A stretch of DNA of 58,126 bases, the filler included, from a bacterium (GTDB taxonomy: Bacteria; UBA9089; CG2-30-40-21; SBAY01), in the NCBI GenBank assembly GCA_040757115.1. It is 3 parts of 3 records of this genome, joined end to end, with 100 filler letters (N's around TTAATTAATTAA, not from the genome) between each part and the next. Parts side by side here need not be neighbours in the genome. Positions count along the whole stretch, not along the records: positions 19,550 to 38,867 come from JBFLYA010000058.1; 2 more parts are not named here. One strand, written 5' to 3'. This document shows positions 1,344 through 51,411 of the stretch, one piece after another. Position 1 is the first letter of the stretch, and each line of letters starts with the position of its first letter. A model generated the notes under the pieces. It was not told the origin of the DNA. It did no database searches and saw only the letters and a program-made list of their open reading frames with translations. The position numbers were made by a program, and so were the translations under genes.

Positions 1344-1483
1344 GACAGCGAAGAGTGATAATTCACAATTCACAATTGACAATTCACCATTCACCATTTT
1401 AAGGAGAGTTAAGGAAGAAATTGTGAATAGTGAATTGTGAATGAAAGTTAAGGATGCGAATTGTGAATGAATGTAACATTGTC
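1344..1483. repeat. Inverted heptamer-array element B in the dnaG 5' leader
   Basis: (AATTCAC)n followed by (GTGAATT)n; near-identical segment at 29934-30025; boundaries approximate. Confidence 0.7.
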
Positions 1484-23652: not shown

Positions 23653-24425
23653 TTCTAAAAGAAATACTTAAAGAGAAAAAAATAGAAATAGAAAAAAGAA
23701 AAATAATCAAGCCTATGGCAGAGATGAAAAAGATGGCTTACGATTTACCTAAAGATAGCAGAGGTTTTAAACGCGCTATCTCTTATCCGAGGGGCAAGGT
23801 AAAATTGATTGCTGAGATTAAAAAGGCATCACCAACAGAAGGGGTTATTTGCGAAGAATTCGACCCGGTGGCTATTGCCAAAATTTATGAGGAAAGCGGG
23901 GCAAAGGCTATCTCTGTGCTGACGGATGAAAACTTCTTTCAAGGCAATTTACAACATCTGAAGGCCGTTAAAGAAGCAACTCATATCCCTATTTTGCGTA
24001 AGGATTTCATTATTGATGAATATCAAATCTACGAATCAAAGGTTTGGGGCGCAAATGCCATACTTTTAATTGCCGATTGCCTACCTCTGGAGAAAATTAA
24101 TAGTTTTTTAAACATAAGTCAAAGTTTAGGATTAGATGTTTTATTAGAGGTTCATAATTATGATGACTGGGATAAGGTTTCACAGGTGAAAACTGAGATT
24201 ATTGGAATAAATAATCGTAATTTATATACATTTGTGGTTGACTTAAAAACTACTTTTATGCTAAAATTAATCATACCAAAGGAGAAAATAGTCGTAAGTG
24301 AAAGTGGAATAAAGACAAAGGAGGATGTTCAATTACTTCAAGAAAAGGGAATCGATGCGATTTTAGTCGGCACAACATTGATGAAAAGTGGAAATATAAA
24401 GGATAAGATTAAAGAATTGTTGTAA
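23649..24425 (+). CDS. trpC: Indole-3-glycerol phosphate synthase
   Basis: IAEIKKASP, ISVLTD..FF.G, LRKDFI, GINNRNL, VSESGI. Confidence 0.96.
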   Translation: MILKEILKEKKIEIEKRKIIKPMAEMKKMAYDLPKDSRGFKRAISYPRGKVKLIAEIKKASPTEGVICEEFDPVAIAKIYEESGAKAISVLTDENFFQGNLQHLKAVKEATHIPILRKDFIIDEYQIYESKVWGANAILLIADCLPLEKINSFLNISQSLGLDVLLEVHNYDDWDKVSQVKTEIIGINNRNLYTFVVDLKTTFMLKLIIPKEKIVVSESGIKTKEDVQLLQEKGIDAILVGTTLMKSGNIKDKIKELL

Positions 24426-24451
24426 GCATATTCAGCATTCAGCTATCAGTT

Positions 24452-24683
24452 TATAGCACTTATTAATCGAAATTTGACCCAGATATGGCTATGAAATTCC
24501 AAATCACAAATTCCAAATTCCATTTAGTGAATTAGTGAATTAAGCGAATTAGCGAATTAGTAAAATCTAATCTCTAATTCACTAATCTCTAATTCGCTTT
24601 TTGGTATGTGGGATTTGGTGCTTGGGATTTGGGATTTTTTTACTTATTCACCCTGAGTAAAATTTTGACTAATAACTGCTATA
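24452..24683 (+). mobile_element. MITE C, second copy
   Basis: Near-identical to 11516-11747, same length. Confidence 0.88.
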
Positions 24684-24740
24684 CGAATTGTTAAATTAAA
24701 TCCGCTGGGAATTCTGTGGATTAAAAAAGGAGGAACTAAA

Positions 24741-26040: not shown

Positions 26041-26074
26041 ATTGCCCGGTCTTACATCTTACCTTTTGCCATAT

Positions 26075-29139: not shown

Positions 29140-29733
29140 TTGCTGACTAAAAAAGATAAACCAAAGTCAAAGATTTATGAGTTTATATTCGAGGTAATAA
29201 TTCCTGCTTTAATTTTAGCTTTAATTATTCGAACATTTGTTATACAGGCATTTAAAATACCCTCAGAATCAATGGTTCCGACACTTCAAATTGGAGATCA
29301 CTTATTTGTCCTTAAATTTGCCTATGGATTACCTATTCCTTTAACTAATAAAAAAATATTTGAATGGAATTCACCAAAGCGTGGAGAAATTATTGTCTTT
29401 CGTTATCCAGAAGACCCAAAAAGAGATTTTATCAAAAGGGTGATTGGACTGCCGGGGGAGGAATTACTTATTAAACACAAACAGGTTTACATTAATGGAG
29501 AATTATTAAAAGAACCTTATAAAATTCATACAGATATTTCTTCTCTGGAACAATTTCCTCGAGATAATTGGGGGAAATCAATAATTATTCCTTCTAATAG
29601 TTACTTTATGATGGGTGATAATCGTGACTCAAGCCTTGATTCTCGTTTTTGGAATTGTCTGCCTAAAGAACTAATTAAAGGGAAGGCATTTATTATTTAT
29701 TGGCCTCCGTGGAGGATAGGATTAATTAAATGA
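29140..29733 (+). CDS. lepB: Signal peptidase I
   Basis: IPSESMVPTL..GD, FIKRVIGLPG, MGDNRDSS.DSR. Confidence 0.95.
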   Translation: MLTKKDKPKSKIYEFIFEVIIPALILALIIRTFVIQAFKIPSESMVPTLQIGDHLFVLKFAYGLPIPLTNKKIFEWNSPKRGEIIVFRYPEDPKRDFIKRVIGLPGEELLIKHKQVYINGELLKEPYKIHTDISSLEQFPRDNWGKSIIIPSNSYFMMGDNRDSSLDSRFWNCLPKELIKGKAFIIYWPPWRIGLIK

Positions 29734-29817
29734 AACAGAAGCCTGTTGTTTCACTTCAGATAGCTAAATATACTCAAATAAATCAGGTTTGCAAAAAAGT
29801 TTAAACGAAAAGGGATC

Positions 29818-30032
29818 GTAACTATTCACCACGAAGGGTACGGAGAGCACGAAGTGAAATTTGATGAATTATCGAATAGAGTCATTGGATGCGCTATAGC
29901 GGTGCATCGAACTCTTGGGCCAGGTTTGCTTGACACCGTGAAGAGTGATAATTCACAATTCACAATTGACAATTCACCATTCACCATTATTAAGGAAATT
30001 TAGGGAAGAAATTGTGAATGGTGAATAGTTAC
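29818..30032 (+). mobile_element. IS66-like MITE with 8-bp TSD carrying a GxxExxY gene start and array B
   Basis: Perfect 14-bp TIR GTAACTATTCACCA; flanked by AAGGGATC (29810-29817, 30033-30040). Confidence 0.9.
29854..29933 (+). pseudogene. GxxExxY (PD-(D/E)XK-like) protein, N-terminal fragment
   Basis: Translates MKFDELSNRVIGCAIAVHRTLGPGLL and is cut at the G-L-L-E motif. Confidence 0.8.
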
Positions 30033-30115
30033 AAGGGATCAAGGATTCAAGGGGTCAAGTGCTTGAAAAGTAGGGTTTTTACTTGAACCCTTGATCCCTG
30101 GACCCCTTGAATCCT
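30033..30115. repeat. Inverted octamer array
   Basis: (GGATCAAG/GGTCAAGT)n mirrored by (CTTGAACC/CTTGATCC)n; it is the insertion target of the preceding MITE. Confidence 0.65.
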
Positions 30116-30169
30116 CTAGGTAAAACTTTTGCAAATTCGTTTTCATTGGGTATAGTTACTGGAAATCAA

Positions 30170-32554
30170 ATGATGAATTTAGACAAAAAAGACCTATGGC
30201 TAATATTCTTATTTTTAACCTTAATAATTCTCTTTTTTGGACAGGTATTATTTACTCCAGCCACCTATGTCATTAGAGATTTTTACCGCACTTTTTATCC
30301 TACTCGATATTTTGTCGCAGAATGTGTAAAAGAGGGTTTTTTTCCGTTATGGAATCCTTATCTTTACTGTGGACATCCTTTTTTTGCCTCTTTACAACAT
30401 GGTCTTTTAAATCCTTTCTCTTTTTTTATTTATCTTTTTCCATTTGATATAGGAATTAAATTATTTATTGTCTGGCATTTTTTTTTAGCAGGTTTATTTA
30501 TGTATCTATTGATGCGAGATTTTGATATAAGCGGAATACCTTCTTTAATTGCCGCTTGTGCCTATACTTTTAATAGTTATATGCTCTCAATAGATACCTT
30601 TACTCACCTTACCTCTGCCTGTTGGACACCCCTTATATTTTTGCTATTCAATCGAGTAATTTCATCTTCGGTGGGAAAAAAGTTCAAATATATTATTCTA
30701 ACAGGCATCTCGTTAAGCCTTCAATTTGCAGGAGAAAAAGTCGAGATTTTTTTTGCAACTGTAATTGTTTTGATACTATGGACTTTGGCAAAAATCATTT
30801 TATTTAAACCACAAGAAAGAAAAATTGCCTTTTTTAGTTTATCTTTAGTTGGTTTGATAAGCCTGGGATTAATCCTTATTCAACTCCTACCGTTTTTTGA
30901 GGCAGTTGTTTCTTCATATCGAACAGAGCGTACCTCATATTCCCAGGCAACAAACTGGTCTTTACCACCTTTAGAATTATTCACACTTATCTGTCCTATA
31001 AAATCAGGATTTATGGAATTTATCCATGTTGGTATACAACATGGTTTTTTTAAGGGGCTTTACTTTGGCATTGTTCCCCTTTTCCTTATATTAATTACTT
31101 TTTATGAAAAAAGGAAAAGAAATCTATTCTGGCAGGCTATATTTTTAATAGGAATAATTCTATCTCTGGGTAACTATACCCCTTTTTATAAATTTTTATA
31201 CGACTATCTCCCATTATTTTCTATGTTTCGTTATCCAGTAAAATTTTTCTGTATAAGTATCTTTGCCGGAAGTATATTAGCGGGAGTTGGATTTGAGTAT
31301 CTATTAAAAACTATTAAGGCAAAAAAGATAAAACCCGCTATTGTCCTTTTTATCCCAAATCTTTTCCTGATTTTTATTTTACTCATCTGGTATCTTAACA
31401 TGGGTAAGTTCCTCTGGTTATTAAAACTTCATTATTTTATTCCTGAGTCGATAGAAGAATTAATGGATATTGAAGGAAAAAATTTTATGATATATCAAAA
31501 CTTTTTCTTAGTCACGATAGTTTTTTCTTTATTTAATTTACTGGTAATTATCAGCTCAAAACTTAGAATCAAATTAACTGTCTTTGCTATAACTTCAACT
31601 ATCATCATTATTTTTGATTTAATCTTTTTTGGCTTAAATTTAAACCCACTTGTTGACCAAAAATTATATCATCAGCAACCTGAAATGTTAAAGATACTAA
31701 AAAAAGAAGAGGGTTACTCTCGTTTTATGATAGAACCTAAGACCATCCAATATTATTCTTTTATGACTGATGTATCAGAAAAGACTCAATTTGAAACTGT
31801 TGATGAAATGCAATTAAGATTAATTCCCAATTTTGGATTAATGCATAAAATATATGAGATTGAAGGATACGGATTTTTAATATTAGAAGATTACCTGAAA
31901 TTTTATGAGAGATTAATTTCTGGTGAATTTACTGCGGTTCATCAACTTCTTAATCTATCTAATGTCCAATACATCCTCTCTAAATTTGAGATTCCATCTT
32001 CGAGTGTTCAATTAGTTTATAAAATGAAAAAATATGGGGAGGAATTTATGCTTTATAAAAATCCAGATTACCTGCCTCGTGCCTTTTTTGTCTCTAAAGC
32101 AAAAATAGTTAAAAACCGCGAAAAAATCTTAAATATACTTACAAACAAAAACTTTGACCCACAAAAAGAGGTAATTCTGGAAGAAAATGTTCTAAATTAT
32201 CCAGAATCCAAAATCCAAAATTTTGCTTCGCAACATTCTTCGAATTCAAAATCCAAAATCCAAATTACCGCTTATCAACCTAATAAAGTAAAAATCAATA
32301 CCTCTTGCCAGACCAATGGCTTTTTATTCTTAAGTGATACCTATTATCCTGGTTGGAAGGCGTATGTAGATGGACAACAAACAAAGATTTATCGAGCTAA
32401 TTTTCTCTTTAGGGCTGTTGTCTTACCAAAAGGAAGTCATCAAGTTGAATTTGTCTATTCCCCATTGAGTTTTAAAATAGGACTTTTGGGAAGTATCCTT
32501 ACTTCACTTGTTTTAATTCTGATAGGACTATGGAAAAATAGAGGTTATAAATGA
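30170..32554 (+). CDS. YfhO-family multi-TM protein (GT-C-like)
   Basis: PLWNPYLYCG.PF, many TM helices, C-terminal LSDTYYPGWKAYVDG..IYRAN..FRAV; likely start MMNLD. Confidence 0.85.
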   Translation: MMNLDKKDLWLIFLFLTLIILFFGQVLFTPATYVIRDFYRTFYPTRYFVAECVKEGFFPLWNPYLYCGHPFFASLQHGLLNPFSFFIYLFPFDIGIKLFIVWHFFLAGLFMYLLMRDFDISGIPSLIAACAYTFNSYMLSIDTFTHLTSACWTPLIFLLFNRVISSSVGKKFKYIILTGISLSLQFAGEKVEIFFATVIVLILWTLAKIILFKPQERKIAFFSLSLVGLISLGLILIQLLPFFEAVVSSYRTERTSYSQATNWSLPPLELFTLICPIKSGFMEFIHVGIQHGFFKGLYFGIVPLFLILITFYEKRKRNLFWQAIFLIGIILSLGNYTPFYKFLYDYLPLFSMFRYPVKFFCISIFAGSILAGVGFEYLLKTIKAKKIKPAIVLFIPNLFLIFILLIWYLNMGKFLWLLKLHYFIPESIEELMDIEGKNFMIYQNFFLVTIVFSLFNLLVIISSKLRIKLTVFAITSTIIIIFDLIFFGLNLNPLVDQKLYHQQPEMLKILKKEEGYSRFMIEPKTIQYYSFMTDVSEKTQFETVDEMQLRLIPNFGLMHKIYEIEGYGFLILEDYLKFYERLISGEFTAVHQLLNLSNVQYILSKFEIPSSSVQLVYKMKKYGEEFMLYKNPDYLPRAFFVSKAKIVKNREKILNILTNKNFDPQKEVILEENVLNYPESKIQNFASQHSSNSKSKIQITAYQPNKVKINTSCQTNGFLFLSDTYYPGWKAYVDGQQTKIYRANFLFRAVVLPKGSHQVEFVYSPLSFKIGLLGSILTSLVLILIGLWKNRGYK

Positions 32555-34803
32555 AATATAAAAAAGACCTATATGCCATCTTTTTTATTTTACTATTAGT
32601 AGTTATTTTTTTTAGTGAGGTGTTATTTACTAACAAAAATTTTGTCTTTCGTGATTTCTTTATGTATCAATATCCTATTAGACATTTTACAACTGAGTGT
32701 CTAAGAACAGGATTTATTCCATTTTGGAATCCATATCTTTTTTGCGGGAATCCATTTTTAGCTAATATAAACTCAGCTATATTTTATCCACTTTCTTTCA
32801 TTAATTGTCTCTTCCCTTTCTATTTTGGTATAAAGTTATTCATGGTCATTCATTTTTTCTTATCTTCTTTATTTATGTATTGGCTAATGCGAAGTTGGCT
32901 AAAGATAATGCCTTCTTTAATATCAAGTATTACTTATGGTTTTAGTGGTTATCTCTTATCAATGATAGATACTTATACGATATTAGCTACCTCTACCTGG
33001 ACACCACTTTGTTTCCTACTTATCAATCGTGCCATTGAAGGAAGGAATTTTGCAGTTATTTTATCAGGAATATTTTTAGGAATTCAATTTTTAGCAGGTG
33101 CTCCAGATGTATTTCTTATTGCCATATTAGGACTTTTCTTGTTTAGTTTGTCTAAGAGTTTAGTAGGTAATAATAAGGGAATTTATTCCTTTTTGTTAGC
33201 TGGATTAATTGGAATGGGACTTACCCTATTTCAATCTTTGCCTTTTTTAGAGATGGCTTCTTTTTCTACCAGGATTATCAGTGGTTTAGAATATTCTGAG
33301 GCTACACTTAGAGCTTTAAGTCTGGCTGAATTATTTACCCTTTTCATTCCTATTACAAAATCAGTTAATTTCTGGTTTGGTCAAAATATAGTAAAAAGTT
33401 GTTATTTAGGAATTATCCCCTTTTGTTTTATTTTAATAGGGATTTTTTATTCAAAAAGGAAATTAATCTTGTTTTGGACCGTGCTATTCTTTGTATCTCT
33501 TCTTTTAGCTATGGGAAAATATTTCCCTGTTTATCAACTTTTATATAAATATATACCATACTTTGCAAGTATGAAAGACCCCATAAAGTTTTTTTCGTTA
33601 ACCGTATTATCAGGAGCTATTTTGACAGGATTTGGAGCGGCTAAGTTGATGGAAGAAAATAAAGGCATAAATTTTCTGTTGATATTTAATCTTATATATT
33701 TTATTCTTTGGCTAATAGCCTGGATGGCTAAAGATTTTATCCTATCTTTATGGATTAATACCGTAGAATGGTATTTTTTGAATATATGGGGAAGTTTTTT
33801 ATCACTCATTCTCCTTTCCTTAACAACATCACTTTTTATTTTAAAAATACATGGATATGTTAGAGCATCAGTTGCTTTTATAGGTATAATTTTCATTCTT
33901 ATAATAGATCTTTTTCTTATGGGATGTAAACTTAATCCATTAATAGATAAAGGTTTTTATGATTATGAACCCGAAATTGTAAAATTAATTGAAAAAGATA
34001 AAGATTACTTTCGTATCCTCTCTGCTTACAATATTAAAGTTAATGATTTTACTTTGCCGCCTATGTTTATAATAAACTTAAAGTTAAAAAATAGCGTGCA
34101 TCCCAATGTGGGAGTTCCTTACCATTTATATGATGCCTATGGTTATGATGGATTTAGATTAAAAGATTATGATACCCTAATTTCTCTTGAACAATTAGAA
34201 AAAACTTCCAAATTATTATCTTTACTTAATATTAAATACATAATTAGCCATTTTAAACTTATCAATATGGATATATTTTATGATGGAGGTGACTTTAAAG
34301 TTTATAAAAATACCGGGTATTTAAAGAGAGCCTTTTTCGTTCCAAAAGCAAGGGTAGTTAAAGACAGGAGAGAAATTTTGAATATACTCTCAAAGGGTGA
34401 TTTTGAACCCAAAAAAGAGGTAATATTAGAAGAATTTCCAAATTCTAAATTCCATCCTAAATCTCAAATCTTAAATCCCAAATCCAAAATCCAAATTATA
34501 GATTATCAACCTAACAAAGTTATTATTAACAGCTCTTGTGAGAAAAGTGGCTTTTTATTCTTAAGTGATACCTATTATCCTGGTTGGAAGGCGTATATAG
34601 ACGGCAAACCAACAAAGGTATATCGGGCAAATTACCTTTTTAGGGCAATTGTGCTTCCAGAAGGAAATCATCAGATTGAATTTGTCTATTTTCCTGCAAG
34701 TTTTAAAATCGGGCTTTTGGGAACATTAATCACTATTACTATCTTAGTTAGCTTCATGATTATCCTGAGAATTAAACATTTTTCCAATCCCATATTCTTT
34801 TAG
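32551..34803 (+). CDS. YfhO-family multi-TM protein, paralog
   Basis: PFWNPYLFCG.PF, LSDTYYPGWKAYIDG; ATGA overlap with the first copy. Confidence 0.85.
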   Translation: MKYKKDLYAIFFILLLVVIFFSEVLFTNKNFVFRDFFMYQYPIRHFTTECLRTGFIPFWNPYLFCGNPFLANINSAIFYPLSFINCLFPFYFGIKLFMVIHFFLSSLFMYWLMRSWLKIMPSLISSITYGFSGYLLSMIDTYTILATSTWTPLCFLLINRAIEGRNFAVILSGIFLGIQFLAGAPDVFLIAILGLFLFSLSKSLVGNNKGIYSFLLAGLIGMGLTLFQSLPFLEMASFSTRIISGLEYSEATLRALSLAELFTLFIPITKSVNFWFGQNIVKSCYLGIIPFCFILIGIFYSKRKLILFWTVLFFVSLLLAMGKYFPVYQLLYKYIPYFASMKDPIKFFSLTVLSGAILTGFGAAKLMEENKGINFLLIFNLIYFILWLIAWMAKDFILSLWINTVEWYFLNIWGSFLSLILLSLTTSLFILKIHGYVRASVAFIGIIFILIIDLFLMGCKLNPLIDKGFYDYEPEIVKLIEKDKDYFRILSAYNIKVNDFTLPPMFIINLKLKNSVHPNVGVPYHLYDAYGYDGFRLKDYDTLISLEQLEKTSKLLSLLNIKYIISHFKLINMDIFYDGGDFKVYKNTGYLKRAFFVPKARVVKDRREILNILSKGDFEPKKEVILEEFPNSKFHPKSQILNPKSKIQIIDYQPNKVIINSSCEKSGFLFLSDTYYPGWKAYIDGKPTKVYRANYLFRAIVLPEGNHQIEFVYFPASFKIGLLGTLITITILVSFMIILRIKHFSNPIFF

Positions 34804-34848
34804 GCTCAATATCTATATTAATTAGTATATCGTTCAAAAAAAATGATA

Positions 34849-35888: not shown

Positions 35889-35909
35889 TTACAAAAGGAG
35901 GAATAAAAG

Positions 35910-51143: not shown

Positions 51144-51411
51144 GTAACTATTCACCACGAAGAGCACGAAGGGCAGGGAGATGTTACAGAACAAATCTCT
51201 TTATGCTTTCTTTCTATCTTTCCACATTGAAATTTATCAATAGACCAACCTTAAATAGTAGTCAGTAGTTAGTAGTCAGTAATTACTGTTCACTCTTCAC
51301 CTCTTCCCTACTGACTACTCTCTACTCTCTACTATTTTAGGTAATGACTCTATTCGATAATTCATCAAATTTCACTTCGTGCTCTCCGTGCCCTTCGTGG
51401 TGAATAGTTAC
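51144..51411 (-). mobile_element. IS66-like MITE with GxxExxY start and a nested element (51248-51342)
   Basis: TIR GTAACTATTCACCACGAAG; 51343-51411 matches the reverse complement of 29818-29886 at 68/69. Confidence 0.85.

Follow-up and report, generated by a model that had tools for sequence, protein, structure and literature searches.

A stretch of bacterial DNA of 58,126 nucleotides (the window), made up of three contigs joined by runs of N, carries on its second contig a 215-bp unit (29818-30032) that joins the start of a GxxExxY gene to ends resembling those of IS66 insertion sequences. With a probability of about 85%, this unit is a non-autonomous miniature inverted-repeat transposable element (MITE) of the IS66 family, moved in trans, in which a gutted GxxExxY cassette has been fused to a hairpin. 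The unit contains no transposase gene and has the features of a MITE: it is short, it has inverted ends and a target duplication of fixed length, and it exists as many near-identical copies at unrelated sites.

The inverted ends and the perfect target duplication reported in a first-pass annotation of this DNA were borne out, with ends that are complementary over 14 nt and an 8-bp duplication abutting both of them (Table 1). A repeat leader follows the left end and is itself followed by a GTG-started gene fragment, also as reported; homology of the fragment to GxxExxY genes stops at GPGLL, directly before the E of the motif. The CACGGAG unit of the leader provides a GGAG ahead of the start codon. 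Beyond the stub, the open frame continues into unrelated sequence as far as a stop at 30001-30003. The resulting 49-aa run-on and a 53-aa antisense open reading frame (ORF) are the only frames in the unit, and the run-on was rejected as a real micro-protein because copies of the element vary in 7-nt steps inside it.

Profile comparison pointed to a GxxExxY N terminus for the fragment, as had been proposed. The 26-codon stub matched positions 1-25 of the 116-position TIGR04256 model (E 1e-4; 22.6 bits, cut-off 35) as well as PF13366 (E 3.9e-4). Scores below whole-protein cut-offs are expected for 26 residues, and sibling elements that keep 55 codons scored 53.6-57.7 bits against TIGR04256, above the cut-off. 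By manual count, 19 of the 26 residues are identical to those of an intact gene that stands behind the same leader in a metagenome-assembled genome (MAG) of a tubeworm endosymbiont. The stub lacks the residues matching D67, E77 and K79 of intact family members, together with the E of the motif, and it therefore reads as the remnant of a gene rather than as a working GxxExxY member.

The unit had been described as present twice. This holds within the window, where its first 69 nt recur with one mismatch on a different contig, but not for the genome as a whole, a 4.3-Mb MAG of 462 contigs. A BLAST search of this genome with the 215-bp unit returned 21 matches that span 209-215 nt and are 95.7-100% identical, along with many partial modules, and copies with the same gene/hairpin junction numbered 27 (36 motif matches minus 9 in other contexts). 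Fifteen of them have perfect duplications, among which 12 different 8-mers were found; these fifteen are 208, 215, 222, 229 or 236 bp long, in steps of one heptamer. The start of the GxxExxY gene occurs 69 times in the genome, with a recognizable end ahead of 52 of these occurrences. Among this genome and 30 relatives searched, the full element was found only here and in a congeneric sister species; the right-hand hairpin alone was found in another genus. In a groundwater metagenome (run X1), the summed contig depth over 29792-30037 was ~121,000, compared with ~275-280 on both flanks; this value is not a copy number, but it shows the great abundance of the left-end module in that community.

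The second copy in the window had been interpreted as simply truncated by a nested element. It proved instead to be a two-ended derivative of 268 bp (51144-51411) with remnants of both gene termini: codons 1-11, the last ~20 codons and both CACGAAG-type ends, with a hairpin stuffer between them. In a 212-bp subfamily, the stretch homologous to the C-terminal remnant aligns with TIGR04256 positions 82-116.

The ends of the unit resemble those of IS66 elements. Ends of this family begin with GTAA and duplicate 8 bp of target, and the single-gene type is named the ISBst12 group. With at most 2 mismatches allowed, GTAACTATTCACC was found at 19 places in the window, where 1.2 would be expected by chance, and it was counted 182 times in the genome. 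Ends of the broader GTAACYRTTCASS class numbered 518 + 528 in this genome, against 1 + 1 for a reversed control; the sister species has 609 + 575, and ends of this class were present in 27 of 31 genomes searched, mostly of the same phylum. When left and right ends lying 60-700 bp apart were paired, 155 of 706 pairs were abutted by a perfect 8-bp direct repeat. In the same pairs, no direct repeats were found at offsets of 1-20 nt, and none of 9 or 10 nt.

The assignment of the ends to IS66 was upheld, since in addition to the GTAAC start and the exact 8-bp duplication, ends of the same class bound IS66-family DDE transposase genes. The best such gene of this genome (contig C198, 2985-4595; L034), which encodes DUF6444 and DDE_Tnp_IS66 domains, is flanked by GTAACCGTTCAGG ends and contains exactly two in-frame stops (TAG and TAA) and no frameshift. 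A 96%-identical copy with the same ends in a MAG labelled Candidatus Edwardsbacteria has an uninterrupted frame of 490 aa. Contig C36 holds the C-terminal part of an IS66 transposase gene, which is split by a nested MITE beyond that part; ~150 nt separate the stop codon of the gene from the end GTAACTATTCAGCAC. This same end recurs 126-127 nt from four contig ends, a pattern typical of a multicopy element at which assembly failed. Relatives carry two elements with GTAAC-type ends and uninterrupted transposase frames (1737 bp, 541 aa; 1505 bp, 476 aa) and one that is internally deleted (L189, L190, L192). The exact sequence GTAACTATTCACC was seen on MITEs and cassettes only, and transposase-bearing copies carry GTAACTATTCAGC, GTAACCGTTCAGG, GTAACCGTTCACA and GTAACTACTCAGG.

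These elements resemble single-gene (ISBst12-like) IS66 insertion sequences in their GTAA(C) ends, their 8-bp duplication and their single DDE_Tnp_IS66 gene, whose product here has DUF6444 at its N terminus. All elements seen were of the single-gene type, and no search aimed at tnpA/tnpB (PF05717) was made. The transposase-bearing elements to which the C36 and C198 ends belong differ from the MITE in having neither the stub of an unrelated gene nor short-repeat arrays. The density here is extreme, with more than 1,000 ends in 4.3 Mb. Two long end pairs with apparent duplications were considered and rejected: C356:12862-15560, which has ordinary genes inside, and C444:4176-6117 (L035). Both have A-rich duplications and are probably chance pairings. 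The C444 interval also holds, among nested GTAAC-type ends, a 343-aa YhgA/Rpn-like PD-(D/E)XK 'putative transposase' (PF04754, E 1.9e-46).

Comparison with the sister species provided evidence of movement. Alignment of contig C417 with that genome revealed several insertion differences. At window positions ~26059-26069, this genome has an empty site, ...ACCTTTTGCCAT, with a single CCTTTTGC, and the sister species has a 166-bp GTAACTATTCAGC...GGGTGAATAGTTAC element between two copies of CCTTTTGC. This is a textbook empty/filled pair, and its element carries GTAGGAA-type arrays of the kind found in four-helix-bundle cassettes. At the site of the 215-bp unit, the sister species lacks a larger composite that includes it (Table 1), and in a second groundwater run (X2) one low-depth contig joins 29767 directly to 30152. 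Three further differences were noted in the window: 24419-24692 is 272 bp here and 40 bp in the sister species; in place of a 2.3-kb stretch at 32492-34838, the sister species has 371 bp that terminate in a GTAACCGTTCAGG-type element; and at 35891 the sister species has a 76-bp GGTAA/TTACC-array insert that this genome does not have.

Table 1. Features of the 215-bp unit, its surroundings and the second copy (window positions)
Feature	Position	Strand	Basis or remark
Left target-site duplication AAGGGATC, 8 bp	29810..29817	.	Direct reading
Left terminal inverted repeat GTAACTATTCACCA, IS66-type end	29818..29831	+	14 nt, 100% complementary to 30019-30032
Leader array CACGAAGG / GTACGGAG / AGCACGAAG (CACGAAG / ACGGAG / CACGAAG)	29830..29854	+	Upstream flank native to a CACGAAG-type GxxExxY cassette
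GxxExxY (PD-(D/E)XK) gene codons 1-26, GTG start at 29854, peptide VKFDELSNRVIGCAIAVHRTLGPGLL	29854..29931	+	Translation and profile matches
Junction and hairpin module from another element family	29932..30018	+	Inverted pairs: AATTCAC-type heptamer array 29946-29988, loop, inverse GTGAAT array 30010-30026
Right terminal inverted repeat TGGTGAATAGTTAC, continuing the register of the GTGAAT array	30019..30032	-	Direct reading and inverted-repeat match
Right target-site duplication AAGGGATC	30033..30040	.	Direct reading
Gene-less hairpin of 8-nt CAAGGRTY-type units, without transposon ends	30032-30109		The 215-bp MITE sits in its left arm
381-bp composite missing from the orthologous site of the sister species	29771..30152	.	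Outer inverted-repeat element, array hairpin 30032-30109 and MITE; flanks 97-98% identical
Second copy, left end: terminal repeat, CACGAAG leader, GxxExxY codons 1-11	51343..51411	-	First 69 nt, 98.6% identity
Remnant of the final ~20 GxxExxY codons, KVGLLINFNVER*KESIKRFVL*	51184..51252	-	Part of the 268-bp element 51144-51411
Native right end of a CACGAAG-type cassette: CTTCGTG array and GGTGAATAGTTAC	51144..51180	-	Reads as a left end on the + strand

Because the MITE inserted into the left arm of the gene-less hairpin, its duplication is one unit of the CAAGGRTY-type array.

The leader repeats had been proposed to be native flanks of GxxExxY genes, and a genome-wide comparison supported this proposal. 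Profile searches yielded 104 matches to TIGR04256 (~20 full length and 84 fragments) and 27 to the four-helix-bundle model TIGR02436. By eye, short tandem units precede nearly all full-length genes, and the reverse complement of these units follows them. Flanks of ~110-130 nt were scored for an inverted match of at least 14 nt with at most 1 mismatch; the main test did not rely on tandem-repeat scoring, which was too strict for arrays as imperfect as these. An inverted match was found for 13 of 20 GxxExxY genes and 10 of 17 four-helix-bundle genes of this genome, compared with 7 of 294 control ORFs of 100-160 aa. The GxxExxY genes without a match were mostly 5'-truncated, with the upstream flank replaced. 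Among GxxExxY loci from many bacterial phyla and three archaeal MAGs, 48 of 79 had matching flanks, against 20 of 236 permuted flank pairs from the same loci, and the layout of a gene between arrays was also seen in 15 loci from SAR324, Bacteroidales, Methylobacter and endosymbiont genomes. The repeat arrays are thus the native flanks of GxxExxY and four-helix-bundle genes. IS66-type ends lie close to many of these genes: 66 of the 84 GxxExxY fragments and 11 of the 20 full genes are within 150 nt of a GTAAC end, compared with 541 of 5000 random intervals. A different inverted end, CGACCTGTGAAATAGG, bounds four intact GxxExxY genes on C256, C386, C437 and C133 that are nearly identical and have GGGGATAA-type arrays; at least one more family of transposon ends has therefore captured GxxExxY cassettes.

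The GxxExxY family is large, with more than 8000 candidates found and 67-86% identity across phyla. Three archaeal MAG loci (L104, Methanothrix; L132, Methanophagaceae; L146, Methanosarcinales) hold GxxExxY genes that are 63-71% identical to bacterial ones, pointing to probable transfer between domains.

The suggestion that a repeat-GxxExxY-repeat unit was the source of the flagged element accounted for its left half and for several deletion derivatives, but not for its right half. Siblings of the CACGAAG cassette keep codons 1-55, or codons 1-8 fused to the part corresponding to model positions 82-116, or both ends around a stuffer, as in the second copy. The sister species has an intact CACGAAG-type gene behind the same leader (L175), without GTAAC tips, that shares 20 of 26 residues and 53 of 78 nt with the stub; degraded versions were found in two genomes from the same order, and in the tubeworm-endosymbiont MAG (L017/L048) an identical left end and leader precede the intact gene. 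The left half of the unit is thus the left end of a gutted CACGAAG-type GxxExxY cassette. The right half, from CACCGTGAAGAG..., matches a distinct family of hairpin elements with ...CCCACAATTTTTACTGGACA and TGTCCAGTAAAA... ends that enclose a GTGAAT-array hairpin. This family was found in 9 other contexts, namely window positions 1348-1435 (C416) and 8 other sites in the genome. The flagged unit is thus a chimera.

It had further been suggested that new MITE ends arise from the arrays themselves. The right end is indeed in register with the GTGAAT array, whose unit GGTGAAT is the inner half of that end, and TTCACC, the native cassette boundary seen across phyla, is the inner 6 nt of GTAACTATTCACC. 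Since array and boundary sequences equal the inner part of an end, a join of array to end by microhomology is plausible, and the suggestion is partly supported.

Cassettes that still carry genes were found with the same kind of ends. In the sister species, a 563-bp cassette (L179) combines an intact GxxExxY gene and arrays of its own with GTAACTATTCAG ends and the duplication AAATGGGA; in this genome, a 484-bp four-helix-bundle cassette (C407) has the duplication AATAATTC.

From these data the following history may be proposed. An ancestral mobile cassette would have had GTAACTATTCACC IS66-type ends and inverted CACGAAG-type arrays, with a gene for a GxxExxY nuclease of ~125 codons between them. 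It would have lost everything past codon 26, and the truncated cassette would have been joined to the GTGAAT-array hairpin of another small element, so that the array ran in register into a new right end. The 215-bp chimera encodes nothing useful; IS66 transposases acting in trans would recognize its GTAAC ends and cut and paste it, duplicating 8 bp of target each time. In this way it could have spread to ~27 sites here and to a similar number in the sister species, and slippage in the heptamer array would shift its length in 7-nt steps. We infer transposition in trans because it best explains the shared ends with IS66 genes, the exact 8-bp duplications and the empty/filled site; the order of deletion and fusion would be as given above.

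Several observations weigh against this history. Transposition was not observed directly, and the empty site for the flagged copy is one for the whole 381-bp composite and not for the MITE alone. Perfect duplications are missing from 551 of the 706 end pairs, some of which are chance pairings or have been scrambled through nesting and recombination, as well as from the 268-bp second copy and from two intact GxxExxY cassettes of this genome with GTAACTATTCACC ends (C460 and C34). This genome contains no intact CACGAAG-type cassette with GTAAC ends; the closest to one are the left end and gene of the tubeworm endosymbiont and the tip-less gene of the sister species. Finally, the assembly has no intact IS66 transposase gene, the C198 gene having two stops, the C36 gene being interrupted and the rest being fragments. 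Because every such gene found is broken, present-day activity in this genome is unproven. Intact copies may hide at contig breaks. A search with the C36 end for a full transposase-bearing copy with a GTAACTATTCAGC end, in this genome and 12 relatives, returned ends at contig breaks only, and the C36 tail did not overlap another contig.

An alternative, in line with the suggestion of the first-pass annotation that this enzyme could act on the hairpin modules, is that the GxxExxY nuclease itself moves the cassettes and hairpins, by cutting cruciforms or array hairpins, and that the IS66-like tips are incidental. D67, E77 and K79 are invariant in an alignment of 27 GxxExxY sequences and can be read as the catalytic D...ExK motif of PD-(D/E)XK nucleases; E27 and Y30 of the name-giving motif are kept too. 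The predicted fold (mean local confidence, pLDDT, 86.7) weakly resembles Cas4 and Hjc Holliday-junction resolvases, with TM (template modelling) scores of ~0.46-0.51 and all E values above 1e-3, and a sequence search against solved structures gave no match. Many distant cassettes have TCACC followed by three 8-nt RCNNAG-type units at both sides, and 16 two-ended cassettes of this kind from other phyla (433-562 bp) have no GTAAC tip, so these must have spread by something other than an IS66 transposase. Against this alternative, the same 16 cassettes showed no evident flanking duplication by eye, and exact 8-bp duplications are the mark of an IS66-type DDE transposase, genes for which carry these very ends. 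In addition, four-helix-bundle cassettes and gene-less MITEs, neither of which contains the nuclease, share the GTAAC ends and the 8-bp duplications. Movement of the hairpins by GxxExxY is therefore not needed to explain their spread, and we regard it as improbable.

Still less probable is a host function, in which selection would maintain and spread the unit as a terminator or an RNA-processing hairpin. The unit does stand between two genes, one for a signal peptidase (Peptidase_S26) and one for a YfhO-family membrane protein, and folds more stably than shuffled sequence (z = -4.27), with a 13-bp right-hand stem. There is also a precedent, in that 23S rRNA intervening sequences of the same layout are excised by RNase III, according to one report (PMC4990558). 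However, the sister species lacks the composite at the same junction, where it is therefore dispensable, the copies lie at many unrelated sites with differing duplications, and an Rfam scan of 29600-30300 found no family at threshold, only sub-threshold hairpin look-alikes. The least credible explanation is that faulty metagenome assembly or binning produced the repeats, or that segmental duplication spread them. The fragmented state of the MAG would allow it, and four of the 15 perfectly duplicated copies share the 8-mer CAATTTTT and may lie inside a larger repeat; yet this explanation is contradicted by the variety of duplications, by the precise empty/filled pair, by an independent assembly of the sister species with the same family at other sites, and by contigs from public runs that extend from both flanks of the flagged copy into the element. 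Mobilization by IS66-type transposases thus remains the best explanation for the spread of the unit.

Several known systems resemble these elements in part. MIC231 of the Bacillus cereus group is a mobile insertion cassette with IS231 ends. The L179 and C407 cassettes qualify as such cassettes, having ends of insertion-sequence type, a passenger gene and a target duplication but no transposase, and the flagged unit is a gutted form. What sets them apart is the passenger, invariably one of two enigmatic small genes and accompanied by inverted arrays of its own, and the fact that most copies have been gutted to MITEs. The short tandemly repeated repetitive (STRR) heptanucleotide sequences of cyanobacteria are dispersed tandem 7-nt arrays of unknown function. 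The arrays described here are likewise dispersed and built of 7-nt units; unlike STRR sequences, they are paired in inverse orientation on either side of a gene or its remnant, and many carry transposon ends as caps.

The 23S rRNA intervening sequences of Coxiella burnetii (with S23p) and Leptospira hold a small gene in the loop of a long stem formed by terminal inverted repeats, and the ORF-bearing forms have a sporadic, apparently horizontal distribution (PMC4990558). The same source describes the origin of ORF-bearing intervening sequences as unclear and gives 'remnant of a transposition event' as one hypothesis (PMC4990558). Like them, the cassettes of this lineage can contain a gene of the four-helix-bundle (23S_rRNA_IVP) family inside inverted flanks able to form a long stem. 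Unlike them, they lie outside rRNA, carry not only four-helix-bundle but also GxxExxY genes, have stems of tandem 7-8-nt units and, in this lineage, bear IS66-type tips with 8-bp duplications. A search of the open-access literature, with subscription journals and ISfinder outside its scope, found no description linking GxxExxY or four-helix-bundle genes, short-repeat arrays and IS66 elements or MITEs.

A wider interpretation is offered tentatively, as a possibility that we consider rather doubtful at present. GxxExxY and four-helix-bundle genes may travel in a single class of selfish mini-cassettes that spans the prokaryotes. The native boundary of the GxxExxY cassettes, TTCACC and then three 8-nt RCNNAG-type units, present in inverted copies, would amount to half of an IS66-type end. 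Addition of GTAACTA would turn such a boundary into a transposase substrate and would open a route between phyla for genes, for MITEs and, by extension, for ORF-bearing rRNA intervening sequences. Bearing on this half-an-end interpretation is a 19-nt end-plus-array string, GTAACTATTCACCACGAAG, which occurs exactly in 33 stretches of public genomes, compared with ~4 expected by chance from our own arithmetic; these include MAGs of SAR324, several Gammaproteobacteria, Bacteroidales, Akkermansiaceae, Nitrospira and others. At least 6 of the 33 loci are short elements with perfect 8-bp duplications. Of five distant genomes containing the 19-mer (SAR324, Methylobacter, Bacteroidales, endosymbiont), 2 gave matches in a search for IS66 genes, with no recognizable GTAAC ends in the stretches examined.

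Small genes for GxxExxY (PDDEXK_3) and for the four-helix-bundle '23S rRNA intervening-sequence protein' occur very widely, and neither has a known function. In the searchable open literature, GxxExxY is barely mentioned, and then only in passing, and the four-helix-bundle protein is called functionally uncharacterized. This genome offers a testable route for their spread, in which repeat-framed cassettes can carry IS66-type ends, generate 8-bp duplications and degenerate into MITEs of very high abundance. The case also shows how pieces of different elements come together in a chimeric MITE, and it explains why assemblies of this lineage are fragmented into hundreds of contigs.

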